From Cyanophora paradoxa CCMP329 (taxonomy: Eukaryota > Plantae > Glaucophyta), in the NCBI GenBank assembly GCA_004431415.1, contig QPMI01000661.1, positions 1-33,116 on the forward strand: a stretch of 33,116 nucleotides of DNA, read 5' to 3'. The stretch's first letter is position 1, and each line of letters starts with the position of its first letter. The notes beneath the pieces are model-generated. The model was not told where the DNA came from. It was given only the letters and a program-made list of their open reading frames with translations, and did no database searches. The position numbers and the translations under genes are program-made. Shown here in pieces: positions 8,699-30,187 of this stretch.

Positions 8699-8982
8699 AC
8701 ACATAGTAAAATGCGGAGTTTTAACCCTCGGCTTAATCTTAATTGATTTTGTTGATATATCTCGTATATTCTATTTCAATCAATCGATAATCTGTGTATA
8801 TCTTATCGAATATTCATTTATTTCGATTATTTTGTATTCTTTTCGATATTTTATCGTAAATTTCTCTTATTTTCCGATTAGTCTTACTGAGTTAATCGAT
8901 AATCTGTATATATTTCCGAATAATATAACTGAATCTCAATTAGATCTTGCCTCTGGTTAAAACTCCGCATTTTACTATGTGT
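8699..8982. repeat. Perfect 28-bp inverted repeat flanking a 228-bp AT-rich spacer
   Basis: ACACATAGTAAAATGCGGAGTTTTAACC (8699-8726) and its exact reverse complement (8955-8982). Confidence 0.92.
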
Positions 8983-9232
8983 GATTGGTCTGTTTGTTAA
9001 TTGATTTAATCGATATTATATTCATGTACTTTCTCGATTAAATTTAATTAAATTTAATTCATTTAATCGGAAATATATCGCTAAACTCGATTAAGATCCA
9101 TAAATGATTCATTTGTTAAATAAACAAATCGATCTCTTATTGAATCCAATCGTAATTATACATGAAACTTATATGTTTTTATCATGTTTTAATGATTCTA
9201 AGGGGGGACCCTTAGGATTTTTGAAATAATTG

Positions 9233-9353
9233 GGTGTGACAGGTGTGACAGGTGTGACAGGTCCATCCCAAGGAAAGTCCTAGTGAGAAATTGATTTTGA
9301 AAATCCACGGGATAGACCTGTCACACCTGTCACACAAACCATATTCAGTAAGG
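9233..9353. repeat. Iteron hairpin, copy 1 (putative replication origin)
   Basis: (GGTGTGACA)x3-GGTCCATCCC-39 bp-GGGATAGACC-TGTCACACC-TGTCACAC-AAACCATATTCAGTAAGG. 27-bp stem with one mismatch. The origin role is inferred. Confidence 0.85.
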
Positions 9354-9826
9354 ACCTCATATATTGGTAAAATCTCAGTGTTAGTTGGTGTAGTTGATTC
9401 AAAAAATGCATTTATACTCTGATTCATTGTTATTTCCTGTGAAATTTGAGTCAACTCAACCCACTTAGTCAACCCTTGCATTGAATTCGTAACAAAATCC
9501 ATATACTTTTACTACTTTTACGATTAATATGAGTCAACCTTGAGTCCACTTAAATATAAATATTATATAATAGGGGGAATCAAGGGGAGATGCTGAGTGT
9601 TATTGTAAGGAAATCGAATAGTATTCGAAATACTTGACATTGCTTAATGTAGGGTGCATTCATATTTCGGCTACATCATACAGTAGAATTCTATTGTAAC
9701 AAAAGCTACTGTAGAAAGAAAATCATTGTAGAAAGCTATTGTAGGAAAGGATATATTATATCCTTTTTTAACGATTGCCATTGTAATAAAAAAGGTAAAT
9801 TACCCTGTTTATCATTATAGAAACCA

Positions 9827-10223
9827 TCAAAACGGGAATCTATCATGTTTATGTCTCTCAGTCTTCTCAAATGTTAAGAAATTCATTGTTTTATCGATCT
9901 CATCTGCAACTGCTTGTGTTTTATGCTGAGCTTCTTTACCACAACTGAATATATCAATTGCTAACATGCCTTCATTGGAATAACAATGAGCTGTGCAATG
10001 GCTTTCATCTAATAGCAGAACCAATGCAAAACCAGGAGGTGATAGTTTGCCATCAAATATCTCACAATGCTTATGAACAATCCTAATACCTTGTCTCAAT
10101 ACTGCTTGTTCAAGGTTCCATAATCCAATTACCTAGGAAGCTAACATGCTCATAACCTGTTGCTATAGCTGATTTAGCCTTGTAATCAAGCATAACATGA
10201 AAGCCTCTGTATTTAGTCTCCAT
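9827..10223 (-). CDS. S-adenosylmethionine decarboxylase proenzyme (short prokaryotic-type family), one frameshift
   Basis: N-term GFHVMLDY. PPGFALVLLLDESHCTAHCY..GMLAIDIFSCG contains the ESH self-cleavage site and the DxFxCG motif. Confidence 0.85.
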
Positions 10224-10246
10224 TAAGAATACCTTAGAAAAATTAA

Positions 10247-10519
10247 CTAGTCAAACCTAATGCAAATATCCCTATACTCTACTCTGATTGATGAAGTAGC
10301 TCTTTTCCTGTGTGCTTGACTCTTTCTTTTGTTACAGTCCCTGCAACCTGATCCCTTCACATGATTAAAGGGATAGGTAAGGATCACCTTATTACACTGC
10401 AAACATCTCACAGATACTTTCTCTTGAGCTTTGATGTAATGTGTCTCACTGTAATCGAATTTATCTTTACCATGAACTGTCATAGCAGCATCAATAAACT
10501 TTTTTGTTTTACTATCCAT
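10247..10519 (-). CDS. DUF723-like zinc-ribbon protein
   Basis: FIDAA..VHG.KFDYS..YIKAQEKVSVRC..C...PFNHVKGSGCRDC pattern, seen in viral endonuclease-associated repeats. Confidence 0.7.
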   Translation of the reverse strand: MDSKTKKFIDAAMTVHGKDKFDYSETHYIKAQEKVSVRCLQCNKVILTYPFNHVKGSGCRDCNKRKSQAHRKRATSSIRVEYRDICIRFD

Positions 10520-10541
10520 ACTCTATATATAACCAATATTC

Positions 10542-11374
10542 TTATGGAGCAGTATCCTGTCCAAAAATGGGGAAATATCGATTTGTGCCATAATACTCAG
10601 CATAGGTATTCTGCCTTGCAATAAAATCGGTTCTCTCTGCAAACATCACACACTTGTAGATACCAAACTTGGTGGCTCTCACTAAGAACTGATAGTCTTC
10701 CAAACCGAAATTGACTCCATGATAAGCAATTCCGAAATTATCATATGGGGTGATCACTACTGCAAAGTTGGGAGTTCCACCTTCAACTTGGCATACAGCA
10801 TAAACATCTGGTGGGATATCCACAACAACCTTGTAGTGATCACCAATCTCAACAAGAGAGTCTACTACTGCTGTTTGTTCATTCACAACAATGGGGAATA
10901 TCTTGATTATATAGGGGCATTCATGCTGGGGACATAGGTTCGAATTCTTGTGTTGGGATCAATGGGATTGGGTTGATCATTCACAAATAAAGGCGCTCCA
11001 ACAGCCCCACCAACCCTAAGACCATCACCAATATAAGCTCCCCCCGATTTGCAGTTAATAGCTCCCGACCTAGATTCAAAAGAATAAGTAGACAGAGGAT
11101 CTCCATAGCTATCTGGGTCTCCATAATGAGCAGAAAAGTTTGCATTTGTGACAAGTAGCTTAGTTGTCTTAACTATTCCATTATTTTTATCACATCTGAG
11201 TTCCTGTAATCTCAGCTTGTGGGTGGAACCAAATGTATTCATTGTAGGTTGGACCTCTGTGGATTGGAGACCCTCAACATCATCAAAAGTAGCATGCTGC
11301 AGAACATGGTTTGCTGGTGCAGCTAATGAAAGCTGAGGTGTAATAATTCGTTCAAGTGGGGGTTGCTCAGCCAT
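10542..11374 (-). CDS. Putative fibre/virion protein, paralog 1 (two ORFs joined by a frameshift at ~10910)
   Basis: Colinear with the 11398 ORF over both halves (ELRCDKNNGIVKTTKLLVTNANF; YDNFGIAY...FAERTD). The structural role is inferred. Confidence 0.6.
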
Positions 11375-11397
11375 TTTACATTAAAGGGATATATCTT

Positions 11398-12243
11398 TTA
11401 TGGGGTTGGGTCATCAATTACATCTGGCTCCATGTAAAACCCTGTAACTGAAAGAGTATCAGGAGTTACACCTCTAAGAGCTGATACAGCGGCTATATCT
11501 GTTCTCAAACCGATAAGAGTTATAGTATATAACCCAATATCTGTAACAAACAAGTCAAAGGTGAAATTATTATTATAAACACAGTAGCCATAACCGAAAT
11601 GATTGTATCCCTGAACATTGAAATAGTATTTATGACCTACTTGATTGTTGTTGGCTCTACAAAGGGAAAGCATTGCAGATGGAATCGCAAGACCTCTCAG
11701 TACTCTTTTGGTTCCTTCAATTAATTCCGAGTTTTCAAGAGTAACAGTATATCCAATGTAAAATTGAATTAATGGCTGCTGTGCAACAGGAGTATATAAT
11801 CGAATTCGTTGGGGGTCTTCAACATTCTGTTCAAGAGTATCTGGGACATCATTATACGAAATTGAGGATGAAAGCTGACCTGAAACTCTGCAACCTCCAC
11901 CAATAAAAGCTCCTCCTGATCTCACAGTAACAGCAGCAGAATTCTTATCGAAATCAAGGGCTTTCAGATCAACACTGTAAGCATCTGGACCTCCATTAGT
12001 AGGTTGGAAGAAGTTTGCATTTGTGACAAGAAGTCGAGTTGTTTTCACCACACCTGAATTCTTATCAGCTCTCAGCTCTTTAACTCGAATAATCGAATTT
12101 TTATCAAAGGAGTTACCATTGGAGTTGGGTCTCTCTGTGGATTCTAAACCACGAACCTCATCATTTACTTCATGCTGGCGAAAATGCATTGCAGGGGATC
12201 CAAGGGAATATATAGGCAGTTGAACTCGATTATATTCACCCAT
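11398..12243 (-). CDS. Putative fibre/virion protein, paralog 2
   Basis: ELRADKNSGVVKTTRLLVTNANF, GGAFIGGGCRVSG beta-repeat and YNHFGYGY...IGLRTD. Start taken at MGEYNR. Confidence 0.6.
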   Translation of the reverse strand: MGEYNRVQLPIYSLGSPAMHFRQHEVNDEVRGLESTERPNSNGNSFDKNSIIRVKELRADKNSGVVKTTRLLVTNANFFQPTNGGPDAYSVDLKALDFDKNSAAVTVRSGGAFIGGGCRVSGQLSSSISYNDVPDTLEQNVEDPQRIRLYTPVAQQPLIQFYIGYTVTLENSELIEGTKRVLRGLAIPSAMLSLCRANNNQVGHKYYFNVQGYNHFGYGYCVYNNNFTFDLFVTDIGLYTITLIGLRTDIAAVSALRGVTPDTLSVTGFYMEPDVIDDPTP

Positions 12244-12282
12244 TGCTTCTTTTACTAAGAAGGAAAGAAAAATAAACTGCAA

Positions 12283-12588
12283 TCAAGCCAAAGTGATTAA
12301 ATTCGATCCAAGGGATTGGTAAACAGTTGAAAGAACTTGCAGGTTGGATGTCATTGCTTTGATGTTGTTATCACATTCAGTGTATTTAGCAACAGGGTCA
12401 CCATATGCAGATTTGGCAAGGACATTAACCAAGAGGTTTTTATACTCATTTACAACTGGTGAGAGCTTGTTAGTTTGCTGAATCGTTTTTTCAACTGTTT
12501 GTAATGCGTTTACAAGGGTGATTGTGTCAAAAGAAAGCGCAACAGGCTCAGTTGAATAGGTGGTTCCACCAAGAGGATAGGTCGCCAT
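12283..12588 (-). CDS. Hypothetical helical protein
   Basis: Intact 101-aa ATG ORF packed tightly behind the fibre gene. Confidence 0.6.
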   Translation of the reverse strand: MATYPLGGTTYSTEPVALSFDTITLVNALQTVEKTIQQTNKLSPVVNEYKNLLVNVLAKSAYGDPVAKYTECDNNIKAMTSNLQVLSTVYQSLGSNLITLA

Positions 12589-12591
12589 TTA

Positions 12592-15500
12592 TTATACTTT
12601 GACATTTTTAATTTGGTCTATTTGATCCTGTTGATCTTTGCATTTTTGGGACAACTCCTTCACAGCTTCAATGAGAACTGGAATTAAACCTGTGTATTCA
12701 AGAGATAGGTAGCCATCGTCTTTTTTAACATTAACTACCTCTGGTATTACCTTTTCTACATCTTGCGCAATTAAACCTAATTTCGTTCCATCTTTTTCGC
12801 TTCCAATTCGTTTAAAACTCACTCCTTCTAATTTTTCGATTGCTGAAAGAGCGCCGGATATCTTTTTAATGTCGGTTTGTATCTTATGTCACTTCCTTGT
12901 GTTAAATAACCTCCAATCCACATCCATCCTCCATGATACATGTAACAAATATCAGTATCTTGTTCATTTCGGAATACAAGGGGAATATCTCCCCCTCCTT
13001 TCAAATATGTAGAAGTTTGGTTACCGAAATGGATACGATTATATCCATCACTGGAATTAAACCAAGTCCCCACAGTTCCTGTTAAGATATTTGGTTTACT
13101 ATAAACGTTATTCCAATGAATATAGCCGGTGTGACCACCATAGCTATGCCCAACCCATATTTTCATGTAACTTATACCCATAATGTGAACTCTTCCAATC
13201 TTTGGTCTAATTCGAATTGTGAGAAATCGATTACCAAGATGTATCGGAACATTATTTAAACCACTGTGGTTACCATCAGGCGATGTGGCGTATGGTTGAT
13301 AACTATTCACTGATGTAATAAAAACTTCATTCCCTTGTCTATTAACTCCCCAAATTTCAAAAACTCGTGAGCTTACCCAAGGTAAATAAGTTAAAAATGC
13401 TGTTCCTGTCAGGTATCCATCGGGTATATCGAAGTCCATCCAAGCGGTAGAAGTTTGGTCATCATATTGATCATTATAGACATATGAACCATAATTATAA
13501 TATGGATCCCATGATGTCCCCCAGTGATAGCTCCAACCCTGAGAACATCTATTAAACTCAATTGCTCCTACTGTTTTATCTGCTGTGTGAAACTTTGGGA
13601 CATCATTACCGTTTATTTGGAGTTTGGTAGTAGCATTAATAGTGGGTGCTGTAATAGTGTTATTCACCCAAAAGTTACCATTACCATATGATTTTAAGAT
13701 TGCTGCATCCGCTGAGTTTCTAAATTCGACAGATACACCATCGCCATTTTCATAGCCTCGAATATATGTAGTTTGACCATTTCCAAACCAAATTCGCTCG
13801 ACTGCATCTACTGATTTTAACCATGCATTTGTTGCCCATGTTGCGGTTTGTGGAAGGTCTGCGGCTGAGTAAAATGATGGTTTACTAAATATATTATCCC
13901 AAGAGATCATCCCAACCTCATTATCTGTTGCCCTCTGTCTACTCCACCCAAAAACACCTGTAAGATGGATTCTACCTTTTCGACCTTGAACATATATTTT
14001 TGTGTAAAACTCACAGTTAATAGAGATGAAAAGTATACTGGATTGTGTTCCATCATGTACTGATGCTTGAATACCTTGATAAACATTTAAACGCCGAAGG
14101 AAATGTTGATTACCATTAGCTGTTTGACCATAGATGTCAAAATATCTACAATTAGACCAACACATGGTTTGAATATAAAACGTTTTCATTCCTGTGGGGA
14201 CATTCCACCTCATCCAACAAGCGCTACAATCTTCATCATTTTGTGGTGTTGTATAACATCCTGTTTGTCCGGTTCTTGGTGTCCATCCTAAGTTCCAATT
14301 ATTTGCGCTTCTATCTGTCGAAACCACATCTAATTGGTCGAAATCGTAACCTTTTGGTATTGTGGTTCCACCAATTTGTAAAGTGGTAGCATTCACAGTT
14401 CCTGTTACAGTTCCACCTGTTAGAGGTAAATAATTCCCAAGAGCTGCTGTTAATTCGGTATCTGTTACAACATCTGTAAGAGCTAATTGTAATTCTGTAT
14501 TTGTTACATAATCTTTGTTTTCTAAATAATCATCTGTAACAACACCAGAGAGGGTCTCATTGTGTAAGTTTTTTGCTGCCATCCTCTGATTGACTTCTAA
14601 GGCTCCTCCTGCTAATGTTTTAATCCAGGACATTTCGCATTTCCCATAGTTATCTGATGGTTGTCCCACAAGTGGGACATAATTGAATTTGGATCGACTG
14701 AATATTATTTTAGGTCTGGAGCCATCAGTTGCACTGACATCTGTTACATTTACTTGCATAATGGCATCCTTATCATCATATGCTGCTGGATCAGATGGGA
14801 GAGGTGGTAATCCTGATGTCAATGTGATGTCCTCATTATAATAACTTGTTAAGAAGATGCCTGGTTTGGTATCAATCACCCCAACACCACCTGCTGAAAT
14901 CATTTGGATTCTTGTTGGTTGTTTGATGTATAATTCACCTTCCATTGTGGTCCCTGCATCAATGCCTTTTCGATTGACATAATAATCATTTAGTTGTAGC
15001 CTTTCAGGTATGGTATTACTCTGGTAGAGACTCACACCATTTGTAAAGTCTGTCAAAATATTGCCTGATGATGCAAAAGTTGGTTGTTCATCTATTTGAC
15101 TCCAAGGGTGTCTGTGGTTGCTATTGGTTATTGTTGAGTAATCATGAGTGTGTGAATCAGGTGGGAAGGTTAATGGAGGATTTGTGATATGCTCCCATAA
15201 ATGAGTATGGGCGAAATCTGTGATCTGATCTTTGGTGTGAGTATGGGCAAAATCTGTGATCTGATCTTTGGTGTGAGTATGGGCGAAATCTGTGATCTGA
15301 TCTTTGGTGTGAGTATGGCAAAATCTGTGATCTGATCTTTGGTGTGAGTATGGGCGAAATCTGTGATCTGATCTTTTGTGTGAGTATGGGCGAAATCTGT
15401 TATTTGGTCTTTTGTGTGAGTATGGGCGAAATCTGTTATTTGGTCTTTTGTGTGAGTATGGGCGAAATCTGTTATTTGGTCTTTTGTGTGAGTATGGGCA

Positions 15501-18500
15501 AAATCTGTAATCTGGGCTTTTGTGTGAGTGTGATTTTGAATCCAACCTTGAACCACATTAGAGGTTGGATGATGTGGTAAATTTGCATTGCTTGTAACTG
15601 TAAGGTAATCTATTACAGTATCAGGTGAGGTTATTTTTAATCCTCTGTAAATATTCAGAGTCTGGGTATGAGTGAATCCATATTTTTGTTGAATGTAATA
15701 CCTCACAGCATTCTTTTCAGAAGTTGTCAAAGCCCTATTGAAAACAATCAACTCGGAAATACCACCATTCACAATATTACCAAATCCGAAATGATTGACA
15801 GTATTATCTGGTAGATAATTTGTTCCTACAAGTGTTTCAATATCTACTCCATTTAACCCGACTGTGTAGCTGCTGGAAGTAATTGTTTGGTCAGTGTAAT
15901 ACCATGTATTTATTAAAGAAGGAACCGTAATAACTGGGCGGGTTTGGGATGCTCCATTAATAGTGAACTGGTTCATTCCAATAGCAGTAGAAGATGTTGC
16001 CCCATAATAACAATATCGTGATGGAAAGGCGCTTCTGTAAAGTCTCAAGTGAACTTGCATAGAAGAGGCAGTTGGATGATATTTTCCCACAAAGAAAAAT
16101 GTAAGCCCATTTGAGAAATCAATAGTTCTTGTAGCAGAGGTATATGCATAAAAAGTGCCTGTTGGGCTTGAAACACTAACTTGGTTGTTGATTTCGGGAT
16201 TGGTGTAATAGGAACTGGCTCCGGAGATAAACAAGTCTGGAACAACTGAATTCGGGACTCTGCTTACTATAGTTGTATACATTGCTGATTGACCTGGTAC
16301 TCCTGATGCCTTCCAAGCAAAAATGCAGTTCGAGATATTTGATGCTGGATCAAAGCTTGGTGGGACATCATACCATTCTTCGTAAACCTGATTCATGGTA
16401 TTGAAATTGCAAGAGCCAATTGTGAGGATTCCATTTACTTTTAGGTTGCTGGTCTCTATATTGCTGCTGTAAATATTACTATTAACTGTGAGGTTTCCTG
16501 TGATTGTCCCACCCACAAGAGGGAGATAATTGGATAGTTCTGCTGCAAGTTCAGCTTCTGTAATAAATTGATCAAGCATAGCAAGGGTTACAAAATTAAC
16601 AAGGATTACTGCAGTAAGGTAATCCTCTGTGACCACTCTCGAAATATTTTCGTTGTGTATGTTTTTTGCAGCCATCCTCTGATTGGCTTCCAGAACCCCA
16701 CCATAATCTGTTTTAATCCATGCAAGCTCTGCCCTCCCATAATTATCATTTGCAGTTCCCACTATGGGAATGTAGGAATATTTATCTCTGCTGAATACTA
16801 TCATTGGTCTTGAGCCATCTAAACTGCTTACATCTGCTACATGAACCTGTATAGCAGAGTTGAAATTTTGGTAGGTTGCTGGGTCTGTTGGGACTCTGAA
16901 TGTATCTGTGGGAATGTCAGCCTCCATGTAGCTTGACACAAAGATATTTGGTATGGTTGCTCCTGGTTCAGGTGGTGGATCATAAGAGCCTGGTAATGTC
17001 CTAATATGAAGTGGTCCTCTCATAGCTGAATTTGCAAGTGTCCCATTCACATGTACATAGTGTTCATTCAAAAAGATTCTTTCAGGGACATTACAAGTCT
17101 GATAAAGAGAAACCCCCAGGGTTGCCAAAGGCTCCACCTTTGCAAATTCTGGTTGGTCATTGATCTCATCCCAAGTATGTTCATGTTTGCTTGGTGGGAA
17201 CTCAGTTGGAATCCCATCAATTTCTCCCCAATCATGTCTGTGATCCTCTGGTGGATATTTCTCTGGTTTCCCTAAGATCTCATCCCAATCATGATTGTGA
17301 TCCTCTGGGGATACTTTGCAGGTTTATTATTAATTTGTTCATAATCAGGAAAGAACTCCCAGATCTCAGGTCGAAATCCATCTGGTAATAATTCCTCATG
17401 GGGTTCATAAGGTTGCTCATAATCAACAGCTGGTGGATCATGCCCATCTGGCAAATACTCCTCATCAGGTTCATAGTTCTGCTCATACTCAAACTCTTGG
17501 GGATCTAAGCCATCTGGTAGTATCTCCTCCTCATTGGGATCAAACTGATCATATTCATATTCTTGTGGGTCAAAACCATCTGGTAAATACTCTTCCTCAT
17601 CTGGAACGAATTGATATTCATCAAGCTCTAATATATCGACTTCAGGAGGTAAATACTGCTCATCTATTTGCTTTCTTGGTTCAATTATAGGTTTATTGCG
17701 AACTTGCTCCCAACTAACAATGTGTTGCCCAAAAGGAACTGTCTCATCTGCTGTGTACTCTCTGCCTGGTTGCTTTTTCGGTGTTAAATCCGGTGGATCC
17801 CATGGAAGAGGGAAGGGAACTGGGACAGGTCCATAATACTCAAAGATCTCTCTTATGGTCTTCTCACTTACAAGCTTCTCACCATTTGCATACACATTGC
17901 TGCCATGGATATTTCGCCATTGCCTGGTTCGAATTCCAAGGTCTTTCACATTGCTATACAAAGGCAAAAGGTGCCTATCCATTTCAACAAGATCAGGATG
18001 TAAATGGATTGCTACTGGCTGACTGGGGCTACTGTTGATTGTAATTGATGGCTTTTTTTGATGGACATCTTTTGGAGTAAAGAACCCAAAAGGCTCATTC
18101 CTTGCAAAGTCATATGTAATATCCTTGGGGTAGACATCATTTGTGTAGGAGACCTGATTTGTGTTGGCAATGGGACCCACTTGCAATACTTGGGGGACCT
18201 CAGCTTTTGCAGTGCTGCCCTCATTGTAAATTCGCAAACCTGTGTTCTGTTTGCCCTGCTCATCTTGAACATTGAAAATCAATCGACCACTATCAAACCT
18301 GGAAGGTATATCTGGATGAGTGCCACTGGTTTTGAGTTTCCTAGGTCTCCTTCTTGTTGCTTTGATCTCTGCCACTTGGTTTGCTTTCACATTACCCAAG
18401 CTAAAAGCAACACTAACTTCCTCCTTATCTGGATCGGTTTGATTCACAGATAAAGCATGCTCCCTTGATTGAGTCTTGGATGAATTATCGGAACTGTGGT

Positions 18501-18609
18501 CAATCGAAACTGAACCCTTTACTTTAATATTATCAAAGTTCACATGCTTGGTGCTGCTTGCATTATCATCTTGAATGGTTTCTAGATTGGGTGGGTAATT
18601 GAAGCTCAT
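12592..18609 (-). CDS. Giant modular tail-fibre-like protein (~2000 aa) with C-terminal peptidase S74 chaperone; about four frameshifts
   Basis: ORFs 17272-18609, 15170-17137, 12828-15545 and 12592-12822 are bridged by continuous motifs: PPxxHxHxWxxI repeats, YLPLxGGTxTG, a LamG-like block (GGISELIVFNRALTTSEKNAVRYY), HTHTKDQITDFA repeats and SDIRYK...GLIAQDVEKVIPEVV..LEYTGLIPVLIEAVKEL. Confidence 0.8.
15200..15532 (-). repeat. 36-bp coding tandem repeat, nine units (HTHTKDQITDFA)
   Basis: Unit GTGAGTATGGGCGAAATCTGTGATCTGATCTTTGGT on the + strand. One unit lacks a G at ~15318, producing the frameshift. Confidence 0.95.
17370..17660 (-). repeat. Acidic ~20-aa coding repeats (EExLPDGxDP)
   Basis: EEYLPDGFDP, EEILPDGLDP, EEYLPDGHDP, EELLPDGFRP. 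Confidence 0.8.
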
Positions 18610-18652
18610 GGCTTTTACTATATGGATTTATAAAATTCCTGATAAGTAAAAG

Positions 18653-20209
18653 ATGCCCTTGAAAATCTGCCTGTCTTTATCAGGGGGAGGTGCAAGGGGC
18701 ATTATCATAACCAGGCTGCTAAAAGAAATCGAAAATCGAACTGGCAGGAGAATAATCGATCTTGTGGATCTTGTGAGTGGAACTTCCACTGGTGGGATCA
18801 TTGCAATAGGTTTGAATATAAGGCATCCTGATAAACCAGGTGAACCTAAACTGACAGCAAACGATTTACACAATATTTACCTAACTCAACTGCCCTTGAT
18901 TTTCGCAAATCCTCGAAATATAATCGAAAATGCCCTTTTTAATACAAAGTATGATGTCGGACCCTTGGAGACTGCAATCAATTCAGTTACTGGTGAATCA
19001 CTAATACAGGATTCCCTTAAGGACATTGTGATCACATCCTTTGATACTCAGAATATGAAACCAATATTTATCACAAATGACAACAATTACAACTTTATGC
19101 CTTGTAAGATTGCTGCTAGGGCTACTTCTGCTGCTCCTACATATTTCTCTCCTGTAAGCATTGTTGATTTCAATAGGGGAGTATATGTCTGTCTCATTGA
19201 TGGTGCCATTTCGGGAAACAATAATCCCAGTGTGTGTGGTTACAGCCATGCAAAGAAGATTTACAGTGATGATGATGACATTATAGTAATAAGCATCTCT
19301 TGTGGTGAGGTGGACCCACATTTAGAGTCTGATTATGTGGGTTATGCTTATGAGACTGTAAACAGCTGGGGCATTCTCTCATGGATTGCCTCAACAGATG
19401 GAAGCCCATTGATTAACATGCTCATGGCTGCAAGTGAGCTTTCTGCCCTTGATAAAATGGAGGAGCTTTTACCCTACAACTATGATCAGGATTATGGGAG
19501 ATACTATAGGCTATCAGTCCCTCTTCCAAATCACATAGTAAGCTCCCTGGATGACACATCTAAAATCCCAGACATGCTTTCCTTCACTGAAACTTACATA
19601 GCAGCAAACAATGATATGATTAATAAGCTTTGCAGCCTACTAGTAGCAAACTATGAACTAAAGAACCCTTCAAAGGCTTACATTTCATCCACTCTCACTA
19701 CATCACCTCCTTTGGATGCCAATTGGTATCAGCTTGCAGATGATGCCTTTACTGCCTCATCCTCTGTGACAGGTAAAGAGCCTTTCATGGCAAGACCTTC
19801 AGCATTTGGCTGGGAAGCTGGAGCCTATGCTCCTGAACAGATATGGGAAACTCCCACTGAATACCTTCAAGTTGCTTTCCCATATACTTTTGAACTCTCC
19901 TCTGTGATTGCCTATGGATCAGGGGACACCAATGCTTTTATTAAGACTTTCAATGTGGCAACATCCACTGATGGGATCAACTGGTCTTTTATTCGATCAG
20001 ATGGGCAGAACAAAATGTATATGTGTGAGAACATTAACAATGCTCACAACTCTGGTGATGTGGCTCTATTGAGTGGATTTCCTCTCAGCATCAAGGATGC
20101 TTTTTACATAGGTTTTTCTCTCAGAATCAAGTATATTCGCATTTATCCCCTTGTGTATGTGAATGCTCCCACAATGAGAGTGGACTTTACAGGTGCCTTT
20201 ATTCGATAA
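18653..20209 (+). CDS. Patatin-like phospholipase fused to a C-terminal discoidin (F5/8 type C) domain
   Basis: LSLSGGGARG, GTSTGG (catalytic Ser), ATSAAPTYF, IDGA (catalytic Asp). C-term EYLQVAF...IKTFNVATSTDGINW...KYIRIYP...MRVDFTG. Intact ORF. Confidence 0.92.
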   Translation: MPLKICLSLSGGGARGIIITRLLKEIENRTGRRIIDLVDLVSGTSTGGIIAIGLNIRHPDKPGEPKLTANDLHNIYLTQLPLIFANPRNIIENALFNTKYDVGPLETAINSVTGESLIQDSLKDIVITSFDTQNMKPIFITNDNNYNFMPCKIAARATSAAPTYFSPVSIVDFNRGVYVCLIDGAISGNNNPSVCGYSHAKKIYSDDDDIIVISISCGEVDPHLESDYVGYAYETVNSWGILSWIASTDGSPLINMLMAASELSALDKMEELLPYNYDQDYGRYYRLSVPLPNHIVSSLDDTSKIPDMLSFTETYIAANNDMINKLCSLLVANYELKNPSKAYISSTLTTSPPLDANWYQLADDAFTASSSVTGKEPFMARPSAFGWEAGAYAPEQIWETPTEYLQVAFPYTFELSSVIAYGSGDTNAFIKTFNVATSTDGINWSFIRSDGQNKMYMCENINNAHNSGDVALLSGFPLSIKDAFYIGFSLRIKYIRIYPLVYVNAPTMRVDFTGAFIR

Positions 20210-21131
20210 ACTCCAACTGAAAAGAATTGTCGATTCCATTCATATCAATCAGTTCACCAAAGTAATCTTTAAACTCCACAGTGAGTTCCCTTATCACCAG
20301 GTTTCTGTCATTTATCTGAATGAATTCGGCATGCTCACCACTATGGTAAACATAGCCGCCTATATCTTTACTCAATTGCAGTCTAAGGATTGCCCCCTGG
20401 TTATGTGGTTGCGATTTCGGGATTATATTGTGTCTGCTGGCAAAGGGGGACAGCTCTTTAATATGCATGTACAGATACTGCTCAGCATTCATATCAGACA
20501 TCTTCCTGCTGTCAAAATAATATTGCAAGGGCTTTGAGGAGAGTCTGGGTCCTGAGAAGGTGATTCCCCATGCTGGGTGATCAGGTGTAATAGGTTTGCC
20601 ATCATACTTTAAAAGGTTCTCAGGTCGATAGGGAGATCCACCAGCAGGAGGAGTGCTATAATAACCATTGGTGTATTCAGTAGAACTCACACCCAAAAGC
20701 TTCCCTATTCTCTGGTTGCTTGCAATAAAACGAAACTCATGGTTACTGTAAAACTCCACTTTATAGGTAGTTGGGTTATAGAATATCTTGAACTCAAAAG
20801 CTACTGTTTTGCCTGCAATGGTTTGGAAGCTTGAATAGTTCAGCCCATAATTATAAGGGTGTGTTACCCCAAAATGACCCTGGTTAATGTAGCCACTGGG
20901 AAGGGGATACACTTTCTGTGTGATGATTTCATTGTATGAACCATCTTGGTAATTAAACTGAACTGTTAGATGATCAGTTCCCACACTGTTATAGATACTG
21001 TTTGGAATCTCTGCATAGAGAACCCTACATTCCCTTGGTCTCTCTACTGGAGTTGTGAGAGTGACCCTGTAAGAGTTTTCATTTTGTCCTTGGCTTCTAT
21101 CCCTGCTATCAATATTAACAAGCCGGTTCAT
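20199..21131 (-). CDS. Minor capsid protein (penton) 1
   Basis: LVNIDSRDR...YRVTL..RVLYAEIPNSIYN N-terminus. YLYMHIKEL and IRELTVEFKDYFGELIDMNGIDNSFQLEF C-terminus. Confidence 0.8.
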   Translation of the reverse strand: MNRLVNIDSRDRSQGQNENSYRVTLTTPVERPRECRVLYAEIPNSIYNSVGTDHLTVQFNYQDGSYNEIITQKVYPLPSGYINQGHFGVTHPYNYGLNYSSFQTIAGKTVAFEFKIFYNPTTYKVEFYSNHEFRFIASNQRIGKLLGVSSTEYTNGYYSTPPAGGSPYRPENLLKYDGKPITPDHPAWGITFSGPRLSSKPLQYYFDSRKMSDMNAEQYLYMHIKELSPFASRHNIIPKSQPHNQGAILRLQLSKDIGGYVYHSGEHAEFIQINDRNLVIRELTVEFKDYFGELIDMNGIDNSFQLEFIE

Positions 21132-21139
21132 TTTAATAT

Positions 21140-22169
21140 ATGAATATAGATAAAAGAAGAATGCCTGTGGATTACATCGAGGTTAGCTCATTTAATACAA
21201 TCTCTGGTGATGGTCCCACATCAAGCTTTGTGGCTAGACTCCCAAGTTCTTATGAGAATGTGAGGGCTGTGAGACTGGTATCAGCCGAATTTTATAACAG
21301 CATCCCTATGGTGAGTGGTGAAACCAAAGTTGGAGATGTGACAGTTGACAATGCATTTAGCATTTATTATTCTGAACAAACTCCTGGAGCTGGAAGCTCA
21401 GGAATTCCAACAGTTCGCCCAGCTGCTGACTATGAACAATGGAAACAATTCATTATAAGTCGAAACACCCCATCCAAAGCCACCAACAACTGGTGAATGT
21501 AATTAACTCTAAATTCGAAGGCAGAAATCCCCAACCATCCATTCGCTGCAAATGGGATGAATCACTGAAACGAATTATATTCCACTCAGCAGTACCATTT
21601 TACTTGGCTTTCTCAGTAGCTGTGAACCCAAGCCAACAAACAATCCAAAAGCTGTTGAGTTCAGCTAGACTGCTGGGTCTTGATCCTGGAAGATATGGTA
21701 ACTCCCCAATCCAATCACAGGTCTATGATGCTCTCACTGATGGAATCTTTACTGGTGGTCGAGTGAATGGCATTATATCTTCTTTTGAGCCTGAGAAGAC
21801 CAGGGACAGTGTTTTGTTTGTGAGAGTAAAGGAGCTGGGTGATCTGGTGCAATGTGGGGATGGTCTTCTGACTGGTTACTTCCATAAATAGTGGTCCCTG
21901 ACAAAGATTATGGTGAGCATGTAGTTTACAATTCGACAGAGGCTCATCCACTTTACAAATACTATAATAAGAAGGTTGGATTATCCACTTTCTCGGTTGA
22001 TATTGTAAATGCTATTAATGAACCAATTGATTTTGAGGGTCAACCTGTTCATCTGACCTTTGAAATTCGCTATGGTGATGAGCCAGCAGGAGACCCAGTT
22101 TATGAATACTTTAAGATGCGAATGTCACAGCTTCACCCTTCCTATCCAGTAATTACAAGCTTCGCATAA
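21140..22169 (+). CDS. Minor capsid protein (penton) 2, two frameshifts
   Basis: SFVARLPSSYENVRAVRLVSAEFYNSI, ARLLGL, VLFVRVKEL, LSTFSVDIVNAINEPIDFEGQPVHLTFEI. Same pattern as penton 1. Confidence 0.75.
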
Positions 22170-22222
22170 ATTAAGGATCATTGGTAGATTTTTTATGTTG
22201 CAGTATAATAAAAGAGATAATC

Positions 22223-23590
22223 ATGGATATCACTTCCACTCTTCAAAGACTTTCGCTGAAAGAAGCCCTAACAACCCCAGAGGAGGCGAAAGCCTTTTTC
22301 CTGGATAACTCCCTTATGCTTGGACTCGAATCCAAGTCTAAGCCAGTTCTAGTTGTTGTGAATCCCAGCAATACTTTTGAGAATAATGTTGGAAATCGCA
22401 TTTCCTTCAAGCTACCTCGCTACAATTTCTGTGGAAAACTCGAACTTGCTTTCGACCTACCAGAAATCACTTTTGCTGGTGAAGATCTAGTTCGCAATGG
22501 ATACACTCGCCCAGTTGGTGCTTTAGTTCAGCGACTTGAAATTACCTATGGATCTTACACCTACCACATCCCTTCTGATTTCCTTGCTCATTTCCCCCTG
22601 GTCTATTATTCGGAGGATCAACTAGCTAAAAAGAAACGCTCAATGGGCATGGTTCATGGTATCCCTGCTCATGGAACCAACCGACTTGGTGGCTCATTCT
22701 TTGTTGAAATCCCAGTGCCTTGGCTAAATCACTATCTTCCCCTTGGTGCTTTATCTGGTGAAATGGTTGTTACTGTTTGGTTTAAGGATGCTGGAAAGGG
22801 TTATGTTGAAACTTCCTATGGTGGTCGCTCTCTCCCTGTTGTTGGTGGGACAGCTGCTGATAAGACAGAAGATGATGGTCTTGGTGATACTGCTAATGCT
22901 ACACTTGCCCATGTTGGTCAAAACATCACCACTTTCAGTCTTGGTGCAACAACCCCTGCTATTTCAATTACTTCTCCTCGCCTTTACATGCATGCTATTA
23001 ATGTTTCTGATGAGCTTTTCGCTACTGTAATTGAAAAAGTAAAGACTACTGGCATGGCTATTCCCTCCCTTGATATTGGATTTGTAGATGCCATTGCTTT
23101 CCCTGCCAAGGGCAATGCCCAGCCCAATCGAATTAACCTCTCTCAAATCTCAGGTCTTGTCTATGCTCTGCTTGTTTCAGTTCGTGATTATGAGACTGTT
23201 GACAAATCCAATGGCTCCCACAGTGTTCTTAAGACCTATGCCAACTCCAAAGAGATAACATTCACAACTGAAATAAATGGACAGCGACTTTTTGCCACTG
23301 AGCCAATTTCTCTACTCAAAGGAGCTGAGCTAATTGCTGATGCCTTCAAATGCTCTAACATGGATAAGGTTGCAGATAAATATGTCCTTTCAGGACTCCC
23401 ATTCTGCCTTGATGGAGAAAAGGCAATTCGAAATATTGCTCAAAGTGGATTTGTAGACCTGACTAATTCCTCATCTTCATTCCTCACACTCTACATGCCC
23501 ACAGATAAGACAATCAATGTTCAAGTTCGCGCTTTAATGCATAGTTTCCTCATTATAGACGGTTCAGGTGTTCGTAGAATCAATTTATAG
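22223..23590 (+). CDS. Major capsid protein (double jelly-roll)
   Basis: Intact 455-aa beta-rich ORF between penton and ATPase. GNRISFKLPR, LVQRLEITYG, VEIPVPW..YLPLGAL are typical DJR strand patterns. Confidence 0.85.
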   Translation: MDITSTLQRLSLKEALTTPEEAKAFFLDNSLMLGLESKSKPVLVVVNPSNTFENNVGNRISFKLPRYNFCGKLELAFDLPEITFAGEDLVRNGYTRPVGALVQRLEITYGSYTYHIPSDFLAHFPLVYYSEDQLAKKKRSMGMVHGIPAHGTNRLGGSFFVEIPVPWLNHYLPLGALSGEMVVTVWFKDAGKGYVETSYGGRSLPVVGGTAADKTEDDGLGDTANATLAHVGQNITTFSLGATTPAISITSPRLYMHAINVSDELFATVIEKVKTTGMAIPSLDIGFVDAIAFPAKGNAQPNRINLSQISGLVYALLVSVRDYETVDKSNGSHSVLKTYANSKEITFTTEINGQRLFATEPISLLKGAELIADAFKCSNMDKVADKYVLSGLPFCLDGEKAIRNIAQSGFVDLTNSSSSFLTLYMPTDKTINVQVRALMHSFLIIDGSGVRRINL

Positions 23591-23649
23591 ACCATATTCA
23601 GTCTCCCTGCATTATTTTTATCTGTCTTTATTTAGGAAGATCTACAACA

Positions 23650-24344
23650 ATGCAAGATTTAGAAGAGTTTAATGTTTCTGAAATGATAAAAGGTGTTTTC
23701 AGAGCCATTTTTATAGGCAAAAGTTGTACGGAAAAAGCGAATGTGTAAAGTATTGGTTAAAGCAATTACATGATGCCAAAGTTATTGATGTTGTCCTAGT
23801 TGTGAGTGGGACCAGCTTTAATCATTTCTGGAGAGAGGTTGCAACAGTAGAACTTGGTAAATGGGATGCTGGTTACATTTCAAAGCTTTTGGATGAAAGG
23901 CAGGAGAAAATCGAAAAAGGTGAACCTGTGAACCACATGTGTGTTGTTTTAGATGATTTAATTGATAATGAGATAATTGATTTAACCAGAGACAAGGTGG
24001 TGTCATCTCTGTACAGTAGGGGCAGACACTCGAAAATATCCATTATCTGCATTACACAGAAACTCAGAAAAGTCTCTTCCACTATTCGAGTTAATTCTGA
24101 TTATGCTGTTTTCCTGAGTGCTGCTAATCGCAAAGAACTTGAAGCCATAGAGGAAGAATACAATATAATGCGAAACAAGGAGGACTTTTACAAAATGTTT
24201 GAAGAATATGTCCACTCCTATCAGTATATCGTTTGGTCCTCTGCTGGCTACTCAGTTAAATACTTTGTAGATAAAGCTGAGCTTGTCAAAGACTTCCCAT
24301 TTCCTCGCTTCCACAGAAAGCCAAAAAGAAAGAAGATGAACTGA
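23650..24344 (+). CDS. A32/FtsK-like DNA packaging ATPase, frameshift in Walker A
   Basis: RAIFIGKSCT/GKS, CVVLDD, LYSRGRHSKISIICITQ, IRVNSDY. Confidence 0.9.
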
Positions 24345-24457
24345 AACCACCAGAGAAAGAGGAAGCCCCAAAGAAGTGAAAAGCCAAGTCCATAGCAATA
24401 AATTGATGCGATATAAACGCGGTTTATAAAATTATCTCTCATTCTAATAAAGATACA

Positions 24458-25190
24458 ATGCCTCCCAAACGAAAGATAGGGATCCCAGCTGGGGCTGTTG
24501 GCTATTCAGGTGGTGGAAACAATGGATCTATTAACACTGAACCAATGAAATTCAATGGTATGAACGAAATCAAACCCTCACAACCCCAAGAAGACCCCCT
24601 TAATGCTGCCTATGAGGAATCAGTCGATGACAAAGCCCCACAAAGTTCAACTGCTGACCAACTGAACATTTCCCTGAGACAGCAAAGATGAAGTCTGTTG
24701 CTGAGGGTGCCAGGCGAATTATTGGGGCTGCTGATGACAAAGGTTTAGGCTTGCAAGATCTTTCACTGGCTCGCAAAGGTGAGGGTCTTAGTAAGGAATC
24801 AGACAAGGTAATTCAGTCTATGGCTGGTGAAGTCACATACAAGACTGCTCCCACTCAAAATATTCATCGAATTCCCAAGGCTCAATGGATGAGATGACTG
24901 CTAAACTCAAAGATCTGGAAGCCAAATCAAGTGCCTTGGAGCAGTATGTTACTGAGAAGAAAGAGAGAGCCAAGCTAAAGGAGATGCTTCGAAAGGAAGT
25001 TTATAAAATGGGAATCACTGGTGTCCCAGATAAACAGTTTATTGCTAAGAAAGAGAACCAAATCGATGAGCAGGCAGTAGATGAAATGAAAACAAAAACC
25101 CAAAAGGGAACCATTGAACCTGGTGCCACCAAAGCTGAAGTAGAAAAGGGAGTTGCCCCAACAGTATATAAAAGACGAGTTTGGCTTTAA
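24458..25190 (+). CDS. Hypothetical protein (three overlapping ORFs, probably one frameshifted gene; possible core protein)
   Basis: MPPKRK start, overlapping consecutive ORFs, K/E-rich coiled-coil C-terminus. Confidence 0.45.
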
Positions 25191-25211
25191 TTTCTCTGTT
25201 TTATTAGAGAT

Positions 25212-25484
25212 ATGGACATAATACGAAAGTTCTTCGAGATGTTCAGTCTGCATGTGGTGAGCAATTGCCACAGTGGATGTTGTGAGACAACAGTGGAGTT
25301 TGAGATGTCAGATAATGAGGATAATGCCTCAGAAGCAAGAGAGAGAAGGAGATCAACAGTTTCTGTGGAGTCAATGCCAGCAGACCCCACAGAGTATACA
25401 TATGAGCAACAGGAGTATCCAAGGAGAAGTTCTTTGCCAGGCGAAAACGTTTTCTCAGCAAATATTAATGGAGGATACAATTAG
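25212..25484 (+). CDS. Hypothetical small protein with CxSxCC motif
   Basis: 90-aa ATG ORF co-oriented with the structural block. Confidence 0.45.
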   Translation: MDIIRKFFEMFSLHVVSNCHSGCCETTVEFEMSDNEDNASEARERRRSTVSVESMPADPTEYTYEQQEYPRRSSLPGENVFSANINGGYN

Positions 25485-25799
25485 TTTGATCGAGTTTACT
25501 AGTGATGAGCCTTTAACTGAGGGTGCTATTAGACACATTCTAGCAAAGCAGAAACGATATAGAGAGGACCCAGCATATAGAGAGTATAAGAAACAACAAG
25601 CCCTGGCATCCTATTATCGCAGAAAAGCCCAAAAAGAGGAGCAGAGACCCAGAGGAGACCGATTAAATATTATTTGCCTACTGATAGTAGCAATGGACCC
25701 CCAGGTCTATAAGATAATTGAGAAAAAGCGGTCTCAGTATGCTACTGAGGCAGCTATAAAAATATATACAAAGGAATTGGCTTTATACTTGCAATCAAG

Positions 25800-26021
25800 T
25801 CACAGATAAGTTTTGTAAATATGCTTTTGTTGTTTTTTGTTTGCATTCTCAGACACTGAAACAGTAATGTGAATGTTTACTGATCTATTTCTCTTTGGTT
25901 TAGCTGCATACATATTGTAACCTATCAATCTCTGTGACATTTCGATATATGCCCCTATATCTCCATGCTTTATGCATTTATCTAACTCAGTCATGGTCAT
26001 CTCATCAAGAGTCTTTGCCAT
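25800..26021 (-). CDS. Hypothetical small protein
   Basis: MAKTLDEM... ORF preceded by the shared YTTAARG..TATA motif. Confidence 0.5.
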   Translation of the reverse strand: MAKTLDEMTMTELDKCIKHGDIGAYIEMSQRLIGYNMYAAKPKRNRSVNIHITVSVSENANKKQQKHIYKTYL

Positions 26022-26088
26022 TTTGTCTTCACTATACACAATCAAGTAAGCCTTAAGTATTCTTGTCAAATTTTGGTCATTTTCGATA

Positions 26089-26209
26089 GGTGTGACAGGT
26101 GTGACAGGTGTGACAGGTCTATCCCATCGATTTTGAAAATCAACTTTTCACCAGGGCTTTCCTTGGGATGGACCTGTCACACCTGTCACACAAACCATTT
26201 TCAGTAAGG
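26089..26209. repeat. Iteron hairpin, copy 2 (putative replication origin)
   Basis: (GGTGTGACA)x3-GGTCTATCCC-39 bp-GGGATGGACC-TGTCACACC-TGTCACAC-AAACCATTTTCAGTAAGG. Lies ~40-60 bp past the helicase stop codon. Confidence 0.85.
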
Positions 26210-26249
26210 CTATAAAATATATGTAAATCTCAATCATTAATCGTTTTCT

Positions 26250-28567
26250 TTAATATTCGGCATCATCTTCATTGTCTTCCTGAACCCTTGTTATCTTTCG
26301 AATCCCAATATATCCTCTGGCAAGAATACCATTAACTCGTTTTCTTTCTGATTTAACATTGAAGATCTCCCTTACTCTTTTCATAACAGATACACATTCA
26401 ACTTTATCATCAACACTTTTGTATGATTTGTAAATGATATCACTGGAAACAAAGTCGTTAGCATTATGTGTAACCTCGAAATTATCTCGAAGCCATTCAC
26501 CAATCTTATCATTTTCAGCTATAAAGTTAATTCCCTGTTCAATAATCGATTGAGGGGACTTCTTAAGATCTCTTCAACCTCTTTGTTCTTCCACATATCC
26601 AGTAATATCTTCATGTGAGCCATCTTATACTCATCATCATTGTGTAGAAGTGTGAACAGAGTTGGGTCAGCTTTCTTTTGACCAGCTTCTGGCTTCTCTC
26701 TGAATATATTATTGAATCTCTGATAGGAAAGTCTTCTTTGAATTGCAAAGTCTGGTTTATTTATAGTCAAATTGTCATTAGTTGTAATGTAGACCTGAAA
26801 CATTGGGGTAAGGATAACTGGGTCTTTGAACAAGGCTCTCACAGTCATTTCATTTCCACCTGTGACCTCCTTAATCTTGGAGATCTGCAGTTTATCACCA
26901 TCTTCAGCCTCATTACTGAATACAAGTCGCTTTCCAAGGAGTTTGGCAAGTTCAGGAGTAGCCTCTGATGAGTTCTTTTTAGGCTTAGTCCAATAGGATA
27001 TTTCGAGAGGGCTGTAATAGCGACCAGATATCTGTTTGCAGTATTCCTGAACAAGTGATTTACCATTAGCACCAGCACCAGTCCACATATAGAACTTCTG
27101 GGATTTAGTTGATCCACTAAGGCAATTGCAATGGATGCCAGAAGATACTTTCGCTCTGCTGGATCATCCACAATCTCTTTATAAATCTGATTGAGATGCT
27201 CTATTTTCTTGGGTCTACATTCTCAGTATAATCATAACCCACAGTCTTACTCACCATATCTTCCAGTTTACCCTTTCTGAAAGTCATAGTGGTCAGATCA
27301 AATACACCATTTTCGAATCCAATCACATATGGAACTGTGTCAATCTTCTCAAGAATTCATCATCATTCAGCAGTGGGACAAGTCAGTCAGAAGGGATTTG
27401 CGAAATCCTGATTGTTTAAGATTTTGGCAATGGTCATCAATGTTTTGGATCTTTCTTCGAAAGCTGCTTTGTTTCCTCATCCTTTAAAGCTCTTTGACTA
27501 TAATGCACAGCCCTCCAAGGTATTGGGGGACAACAAGACGGCTTATATCTAGGTAAATCTTTAGGTTTGTGTCATCAAGCTCCCAAATCCCAGTATCAGT
27601 ATTGAGTTTGAACCATGACTTTTTGGAGTATCTCCAAGTGTGTTTAAGAACCTCTTTGCATACTAAACTCACATCATAATGAGCGCCACCAGAACCAGCG
27701 GATTTATCTATAAGATTAAAGATATCAGATTGCATTCCAATGCAGATGAATCGTTTTTTGCAATTTCCACTGTAGCTTGACACAATGTATTTGTTATCAT
27801 CTCCTTTAGCTTTCATAACAAACCAGTTATTCGATTCATGTGAACCATTGCAGCATGGGCAATTGAGTCCCTTGTTAGCAGCATCAAAGTTAAAGCCAAG
27901 TTCAGTTTTAGAGATTATATTGGATGCATAAATCCCATATCCACCAGCTCTTTGATAATATTGTTTTCCAGTTCATCATATGAGGTAGCATTAGCAGTAT
28001 ACTCACTCTTATAGATGTAATTATCTATAATCCACTTTTTGAAGTCATCAGTAGGCTCATTGAAATCACAGGTATCATCCCATGGGGAGATCACCCAAGC
28101 CTTGTTGACACTGGGACAAACATTAATTAATCCAGAAGTTCCAGTTCCAGTGATTGTTTTCAGGTCAACCTTTTCAAAGCCTTTAAAGCCTGGAGCCTTA
28201 TCGGTGATTTTGAGTTTAGTGAACTCCTCAGGTCGTTTAAAGTAGACATGATAGCCTTTTTTAGTTTTTGCCATGGGCTGATTGGCATCAAAGTCATCAG
28301 GAAACATATCCGGAATTTGTCAAAGTCCTCCTCATCATCAAAGTCAATAACCATCATGTTGTCTGAGAGCAGAATGCCCCAAGATACATACTGATTAGTT
28401 GCCAGCGCTTCCTCATACTTTTCCCAGGACCAAGCACCTCCCTTATGCTTGAAAACAGGGTCTTTGCTGTCAGGTTTCACTGGGATAATCATGTTTTTGG
28501 CTAGATCCTCATCAGATCTGAGCCAGTTAGCGAGCGATTTGAGCGATTTAGTCTGTTTGGCGTTCAT
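26250..28567 (-). CDS. Bifunctional primase-polymerase (PrimPol/AEP) fused to D5-like SF3 helicase, several frameshifts
   Basis: IIPVKPDSKDP, WGILL..MVIDFDD, TKKGYHVYF (PrimPol); IGFENGVFDL (D5_N); GAGANGKS, LVFSNEAE, IKEVTGG..VRALF, ITTN, AIQRRL (SF3); winged-helix-like C-term (IGEWLRDNF...RGYIGIR). Confidence 0.9.
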
Positions 28568-28574
28568 TTTCAGC

Positions 28575-28635
28575 GATTGGGGTCCCTTTTATATATATAG
28601 AAGATTTTTCTTTAAGTAGTTTTGGGTCCCCAATC
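28575..28635 (-). promoter_or_regulatory. Putative promoter of the primase-helicase, bracketed by a 12-bp inverted repeat
   Basis: Minus strand CTTAAAG-N10-TATATATA. GATTGGGGTCCC (28575-28586) and GGGTCCCCAATC (28624-28635) are inverted with one mismatch. Confidence 0.55.
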
Positions 28636-30077: not shown

Positions 30078-30187
30078 TCTTGCTATTTGGCTTCTATATA
30101 TATACAATATAAAATTCCTTAAGTATTTTTCGCGTTCGGAATATCCCCATTTAAAACCTCCCTTTTATTAGGAACAAGTTAGGAACA

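Follow-up and report, generated by a model that had tools for sequence, protein, structure and literature searches.

Paired iteron palindromes with mutually reversed cores in a putative Polinton-like virus from Cyanophora paradoxa, one of them a likely origin of the adjacent helicase

The 33,116-nucleotide stretch of Cyanophora paradoxa CCMP329 DNA analysed here (GCA_004431415.1, contig QPMI01000661.1, positions 1 to 33,116; hereafter the window) holds two copies of a palindrome built from 9-bp repeats, which lie about 17 kb apart in what is likely a virus-like element integrated in an algal genome, the alga likely being its host. Copy 2, which lies just beyond the stop codon of a D5-like superfamily 3 (SF3) helicase gene, is likely the replication origin of that helicase in a putative Polinton-like virus (PLV), a function we infer from its layout and from related loci, while copy 1 is likely a duplicate of the copy 2 unit near the probable left end of the element. 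The core of one copy is reversed relative to the other and, given the seven substitutions between them, the simplest reading is that this likely reflects a single past inversion within 21-bp perfect arms. To the combined reading, which takes copy 2 as the origin used by its neighbouring helicase and the core reversal as a fixed past inversion and not a switch, we assign a probability of roughly 60%.

The two palindromes and the helicase gene beside copy 2

Copy 1 begins with three direct 9-bp repeats of GGTGTGACA (putative iterons; 9233..9259, forward strand), and has a palindrome at 9243..9335 with 27-bp arms that contain one mismatch, a 39-nt loop at 9270-9308 and two inverted repeats at 9319-9335. 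In copy 2, the three 9-bp repeats lie at 26089..26115 (forward strand), the palindrome at 26099..26191 and the loop at 26126-26164. As the initial annotation of this DNA had proposed, both copies carry, in direct orientation, GGTGTGACA three times on the left side and, on the right, two inverted copies followed by AAACCAT.TTCAGTAAGG (31 identical bases in the left flank and 28 in the right), and yet the core between these flanks is reversed. The 39-nt loops agree at 32 of 39 positions when one is inverted versus 14 of 39 when they are compared directly, a score of 32 being reached in none of 100,000 shuffles; the single CC/CT stem mismatch changes arms between the copies; and 9243-9335 matches the reverse complement of 26099-26191 at 86 of 93 positions, i.e. 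with seven differences. Folding predictions give each copy a stem of 27-28 bp (z about -8 relative to 200 shuffled sequences), within which the perfect portion of the arms is 21 bp, and the GGTGTGACA 9-mer is confined to these two sites in a window of about 30 genes. An assembly artefact was ruled out, as short-read contigs hold both cores, that of copy 2 with exactly seven differences from copy 1.

The two copies differ in their surroundings. The arm of copy 2 ends 58 bp (spacer 26192..26249, forward strand) and its flank 40 bp from the helicase stop codon. Copy 1 lies 491 bp from an S-adenosylmethionine (SAM) decarboxylase gene and has no helicase neighbour. The right flank of copy 1 (9336..9377, forward strand), which starts with AAACCAT, is homologous to the DNA that separates copy 2 from the helicase stop codon, and because this direct match continues to about 9377/26232, at most 18 bp from the stop, copy 1 looks like a duplicate of a helicase-linked unit.

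The helicase gene itself (26250..28588, minus strand) is split over several frames in the assembly and matches DUF5906 (E = 4e-9). Its SF3 part matches a PHROG primase family (E = 2e-34), and a profile built from this part and its relatives matches African swine fever virus C962R and poxvirus D5. The last 107 codons have a predicted fold (predicted local distance difference test, pLDDT, 89.5) whose matches at E < 0.001 are RFX winged helices alone (RFX5, 1.6e-4; RFX1-DBD, 3.6e-4), so that we predict an RFX-type winged helix for the C-terminal piece (26253..26573, minus strand), a candidate iteron-binding domain. The N-terminus, in which DxD and GxH motifs can be seen by eye, is likely an AEP/Prim-Pol primase.

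Related helicase loci and known origins

Arrays of opposed repeats also lie behind some related helicase genes, which the initial annotation had proposed to search. Among relatives of the SF3 domain (the best 80 of at least 545 viral loci, of which the 77 with a full bin were counted), opposed tandem arrays starting between -50 and +450 bp of the helicase stop codon were found at 21 of 77 loci versus 9 of 1031 other 500-bp bins used as controls, although the Fisher p of 3e-19 overstates this enrichment, the loci being related and not independent. Seven giant-virus-type loci from one D5 clade carry a similar iteron palindrome after the gene, and most of them share with the window an ATGGTYT motif beside two repeats of 9-bp period; within these loci the repeat letters track helicase subclades, in a tree without support values. 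Layout and the ATGGTYT motif alone are held in common, since comparison of the window loops with those of the giant-virus palindromes gave no convincing similarity (|z| at most 3). The GTGTGACAG array matches 12 Microbacterium phage records, with all ten of those listed sitting under an annotated primase or primase/helicase gene, and at one of a further set of 22 loci (L011) the array stands beside a weak match to the window helicase. A second, partial copy of the D5 C-terminus was seen downstream of the gene in the giant-virus-type loci L033 (5797-6283), L111 (1614-1934) and L046 (6299-6537), the one in L033 being joined to the palindrome.

A close likeness to the arrangement at copy 2 is the origin of the Sulfolobus plasmid pRN1, whose replication, in the passages of PMC4234260 that treat it, requires a 100-bp stem-loop 54 bp after orf904, a primase-SF3 helicase gene. 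Both are stem-loops of about 100 bp that lie about 55 bp after a gene for a primase, SF3 helicase and winged helix, of which the primase is likely and the winged helix predicted in the window (54 bp, a 21-nt stem and a 58-nt loop in pRN1; 58 bp, a 27-bp stem and a 39-nt loop here), with GTG triplets in the stem in each case (PMC4234260); the putative origin of phage BIP-1, treated in the same paper, can be set beside that of pRN1 as a related system. The arms described here are, however, built of 9-bp repeats, unlike the pRN1 origin, which is without iterons (PMC4234260), the host is likely eukaryotic, and a second copy with an inverted core lies 17 kb away. Opposed iterons are instead a trait of the origins of Staphylococcus aureus pathogenicity islands (SaPIs) and phage-inducible chromosomal islands (PICIs) with Rep or PriRep5, where, as excerpted from PMC9371898, a spacer directly 3' of the helicase gene is flanked on either side by two or more opposed iterons, which are bound by a C-terminal winged helix, a domain that is predicted here. 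These origins have 6-12 penta- or hexamers, rather than the five 9-bp repeats found here (PMC9371898), and they also differ from the window in that the spacer here is barely AT-rich, the element encodes a putative capsid and is eukaryotic, and binding by the helicase is putative. The alpha protein of phage P4 likewise combines a D5-like helicase with a winged helix, for which binding is reported in the parts of PMC4234260 consulted. Alpha has a Toprim primase, whereas an AEP-type primase is likely here, with a compact palindrome as the origin. The window repeat reads TGTCACACC on the other strand; the P4 iteron, TGTTCACC, was not confirmed by a literature search, which returned unrelated listings.

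Copy 2 thus combines a helicase gene 58 bp away, 3+2 repeats with a 27-28-bp stem and a predicted winged helix, all features of the pRN1/SaPI/P4 type, while copy 1 lies beside no helicase gene. This layout, the predicted winged helix and the enrichment of 3' arrays behind related SF3 helicase genes together make it likely that copy 2 works as an origin of the kind used by self-loading primase-helicases. At such an origin, the opposed 9-bp repeats would be recognised by the winged helix, a pair of helicase hexamers would be loaded in head-to-head orientation and melt the loop, and priming by the likely primase would proceed in both directions. An origin of this form is symmetric, so that its core would be turned round with little penalty by a template switch within the 21-bp perfect arms; after the inversion, the two copies would have drifted apart by seven substitutions. 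Loop inversion by template switch is a described class of mutation in which, as here, the loop is reversed between the stem halves and its length is kept, although the cases given in the passages of PMC8794818 that we draw on are ribosomal RNA hairpins and not viral origins. Of the routes to inversion suggested by the initial annotation, exchange between the arms is the one that the evidence supports.

The initial annotation had also set a helicase-bound internal origin against the protein-primed origin expected for Polintons. The internal origin stands as a likely reading, but the contrast was drawn too sharply, since a protein-primed family B DNA polymerase (pPolB; 30155..33079, forward strand, several frames), which lies further right than the helicase gene, probably belongs to the same element. 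The element may therefore hold two replication systems. A comparable situation has been discussed for PLVs in PMC11296320, the relevant passages of which put forward a replicon-replacement model in which PolB elements have their terminal repeats invaded by mobile helicases, and describe for Gezel-14T a direct repeat found both in the terminal repeat and behind the helicase module. The window resembles Gezel-14T in having a repeat behind the primase-helicase module and, possibly, in a terminal region, and resembles the PLV end modules in having polymerase B and helicase modules within one lineage; an iteron hairpin and core inversion, on the other hand, are not described in those passages (PMC11296320). 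No tyrosine recombinase was found in the window, and placement of copy 1 in a terminal repeat is a candidate assignment. The distance of 534 bp between copy 1 and position 8699, where the element may have its left end, would fit the model of a helicase that invades a terminal repeat. A tentative extension, which we consider clearly less probable than the combined reading above, is that this PLV is midway in a replicon takeover: a protein-primed polymerase would have been kept while an incoming primase-helicase planted its iteron origin twice, once just after the gene that encodes it and once in the terminal region, and the palindromes would act as fold-back hot spots that reverse cores, extend arms and join the capsid module to different replication modules.

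Core orientation, remodelling and alternative explanations

Of 21 sequencing runs listed, 20 contain more than half of the sampled window words, all of them from one organism. Contigs were listed for four runs (X1, X2, X4 and X17), in which high depths (hundreds to thousands) and many variants indicate that the element is a multi-copy family. We then compared the observed contig ends with those simulated in a k=31 graph with and without flipped isomers. With no isomers, the simulated core contig of site 2 measured 97 nt and the right contig began at 26162; a flipped site 1 gave a 91-nt core contig and a right start at 26169; and a flipped site 2 gave an 88-nt core contig and a right start at 26171. 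Run X4, with a 97-nt core contig (depth 1007.5, three repeats, seven differences from copy 1) and a right contig unbroken from 26163 to 26519 (depth 1071), fits the graph without flipped isomers, so the orientation check proposed with the initial annotation gives one orientation at site 2 in the informative contigs. The coexistence of both isomers at one site is not supported by the X4 contigs, site 1 being less well covered, although a minority isomer may exist.

The contigs nonetheless reveal sites that have been rearranged. A strand-changing joint from 9227 to 9319/26175 is present in all four runs (depths 1520, 852, 579 and 925) and is best read, from its geometry and not its letters, as an inverted left array placed before two repeats and AAACCAT. 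Loose contig ends in the same runs show that CAGTAAGG is followed by a number of different sequences, that the repeats can lead into other cores and that left flanks vary as well, so that the family has several versions of the palindrome site. Remodelling by fold-back, and perhaps an exchange of modules, would fit this pattern. Left of copy 1, at 9216-9227, the contigs also contain several deletion variants.

Exchange of this kind is the basis of the best-placed alternative, in itself unlikely, that the copies are mainly recombination sites which excise or swap the 17-kb structural module between them or join it to different replication modules. It would account for the long identical stretches in the direct flanks, for the differing sequences after CAGTAAGG and the differing cores and left flanks, and for some structural-gene contigs that are 2-4 times deeper than the helicase end. 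Excision of the module, as the initial annotation envisaged it, nevertheless finds no support. No direct joint between the two sites is among the 15 joints listed, with the proviso that a crossover inside the 31-bp left flank would be invisible at k=31; a crossover between the right arms would break the X4 contig near 26171, where it is unbroken; and near-identical contigs of the fibre region are no deeper than the helicase end in any of the four runs (1237-1803 versus 1947 in X1, 746-1064 versus 1216 in X2, 621-948 versus 1071 in X4 and 446-738 versus 707 in X17), which argues against an amplified circle, summed contig depth not being the same as copy number. Recombinases, including tyrosine recombinases, as well as HUH nucleases and protelomerases, gave no family match among the 52 window open reading frames (ORFs) scanned, the element running off the window.

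We consider it improbable, slightly more so than module recombination, that the sites invert repeatedly during replication, through hairpin transfer, cruciform resolution or strand switching at initiation, with flip and flop forms coexisting at each site. Parvoviruses have flip/flop hairpin termini of this sort. The mismatch does swap arms exactly in flip/flop fashion, the strand-changing joint occurs in all four runs, and relatives show both orientations, since their palindromes lie either way round to the D5 gene (L035, L029 and L033 versus L048 and L111) and the L048 loop matches those of L035 and L029 when reversed only (1 and 0 of 1000 dinucleotide shuffles; 21 of 1000 for L033). In L111 (by eye) and in L034, which is reversed against L040 across about 790 bp, it is however the whole unit that is turned and not the core alone. 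Beyond the fit of X4's two site-2 contigs to a graph without isomers, the 89-nt core contig of X2, one letter above what a flipped site 2 allows, argues against a flipped form there, and the seven substitutions mean that the copies were not freshly exchanged. The sites are also internal, with contiguous flanking DNA in the window and contigs that extend past both right flanks and the left flank of copy 2, and no match to an HUH nuclease, protelomerase or tyrosine recombinase accompanies them. Flip/flop hairpin termini are mentioned for poxviruses, asfarviruses and phycodnaviruses in passages of PMC11788076, and share with the window an imperfect palindrome in two reverse-complement forms; those are closed ends whose isomers are regenerated in each round, whereas the copies here are internal, diverged and seen in one orientation. 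The palindromes are not members of this class, and the live flip/flop that the initial annotation had raised by analogy with parvovirus and poxvirus ends is not borne out.

About as improbable is a history with no core inversion. In it, an ancestral unit that was symmetric and had AAACCAT flanks left and right would have been copied in inverted orientation, after which each of the two copies would have shed one flank and acquired a third repeat. L048 is indeed symmetric, with an ATGGTCT motif on both arms, there is a weak likeness between the left flank of copy 1 and the right flank read in reverse (76% over 41 nt, of which the arm makes up about half), and the strand-changing joint form may be near-symmetric. 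Under such a history both copies would have had to change in parallel, whereas a single inversion accounts for their common count of 3+2 repeats and for the right flank that they share to about 9377/26232. Hairpins terminate transcripts in some large DNA viruses, and both copies lie 3' of minus-strand genes, copy 1 without a helicase neighbour, but it is very unlikely that the repeats are terminators, regulatory operators or selfish miniature elements and not origins, given that they occur at two places alone among about 30 genes, that arrays are enriched 3' of D5 genes and that the palindromes have no Rfam match to a structured RNA.

Several results weigh against a helicase origin with a fixed inversion. 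On the side of the origin, the loops are mildly AT-rich at most (64-67% AT versus 60% in the element body), and support for an N-terminal primase is weak, with PHROG primase matches at E = 0.009 and 0.071 and no BLAST match to P0001. By the detector used, 56 of the 77 related loci are without an array. Close relatives with the same hairpin were found in none of the viral contigs, metagenomes and prokaryote genomes searched, and a hairpin pattern search returned four loci, none of them matching window proteins. A tblastn search beside copy 1 gave no match to a helicase remnant, and beyond the shared flank the similarity of its surroundings to helicase DNA has p of about 0.07. As for the inversion, the abundant strand-changing joint implies that the sites have been remodelled more than once, and right contigs that start at 26172 (X17 and X2) and 26249 (X1) fit no simulated case. 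Phasing of site 1 is thin, its left side being a contig of depth 21 and its right side contigs with two other letters. Moreover, contigs drop rare variants, and orientation was read from the 32 pieces listed per contig query, beyond which there were 19,210 and 498 others.

The surrounding element and the meaning of the palindromes

The window holds GC-rich DNA to about position 600 and a first element with an ATPase gene, an HNH-AP2 gene and a pPolB gene; 57-bp tandem repeats at 731-883 lie near the left end of this element, adjoining the GC-rich DNA. Its pPolB breaks off near 8700, losing its N-terminal part, at an inverted repeat (8699..8982) with 41-48-bp arms that include a 28-bp perfect stem, and an AT-rich loop with nested palindromes. 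This inverted repeat could represent the left terminus of the second element, or else a small insertion. Two further small palindromes (9030-9073 and 9195-9220) lie just left of copy 1.

The second element, whose right end lies beyond the window, carries SAM decarboxylase, fibre-like, patatin lipase, putative capsid, A32 ATPase and D5-like helicase genes. The module between the copies (9827..25809) comprises the SAM decarboxylase, the fibre-like genes with an S74 chaperone, the patatin lipase, putative minor capsid genes, the putative major capsid gene and the packaging ATPase gene. The gene at 22223-23590 has no family match; from gene context it is the putative major capsid gene, and the putative minor capsid genes are labelled on the same basis, likewise without a family match. 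An A32-like packaging ATPase (23682-24344, E = 1e-8), the D5-like helicase and, probably, the pPolB make up the replication and packaging genes of the putative PLV. The closest relative of the putative capsid is a Cyanophora paradoxa protein (58-59% identity), and among 1.84 billion representative proteins it has just two relatives (59% and 37%), which point to a little-sampled lineage; a search for capsid relatives with surrounding DNA found none. PLVs or adintovirus-like proteins are mentioned for Cyanophora paradoxa in passages of PMC12220804 and PMC8502044.

A TATA...CTT(A/T)AA motif at 26033, 28590, 29053, 29722 and 30095 lies upstream of minus-strand ORFs, the helicase included; it is a possible early promoter, whose presence on both sides of copy 2 suggests one element; a bacterial promoter scan, with a model ill-suited to this host, gave chance-level results. 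Where two fibre-like ORFs overlap, 36-bp tandem repeats at 15144-15574 encode HTHTKDQITDFA-type units, and the ORF after this pair contains 66-bp repeats (17375-17621). Summed contig depth over the fibre-like genes at 12464-16621 and the ATPase region at 23750-24343 is far below that of neighbouring structural genes in all four runs, which looks like variation between subfamilies. All 12 listed indels (of 37) between contigs and window are single bases, several of them at ORF breaks (9823-25190), and since much of the contig depth contradicts the window at these breaks, many of its frameshifts probably stem from errors in long reads, and most of the family may have intact genes.

For helicase-coding PLVs, terminal repeats have been proposed, as a hypothesis, to be where replication starts, in passages of PMC11296320, and no description of iteron hairpin origins in PLVs was found in the titles and passages searched, which took in few subscription journals. 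The palindrome pair is likely a variant of a known origin type and not a flip/flop system of hairpin termini, and the reversal as such, being probably the outcome of ordinary mutation, is the less surprising. Across the family, the palindrome sites look dynamic, with variant flanks, variant cores and an abundant fold-back-like form in the contigs. With a delimited candidate origin of 93 bp, a short domain predicted to bind it and a laboratory alga as the likely host, binding is open to direct test, and the second copy near the probable end of the element could provide a test of the model in which a helicase replaces the polymerase.

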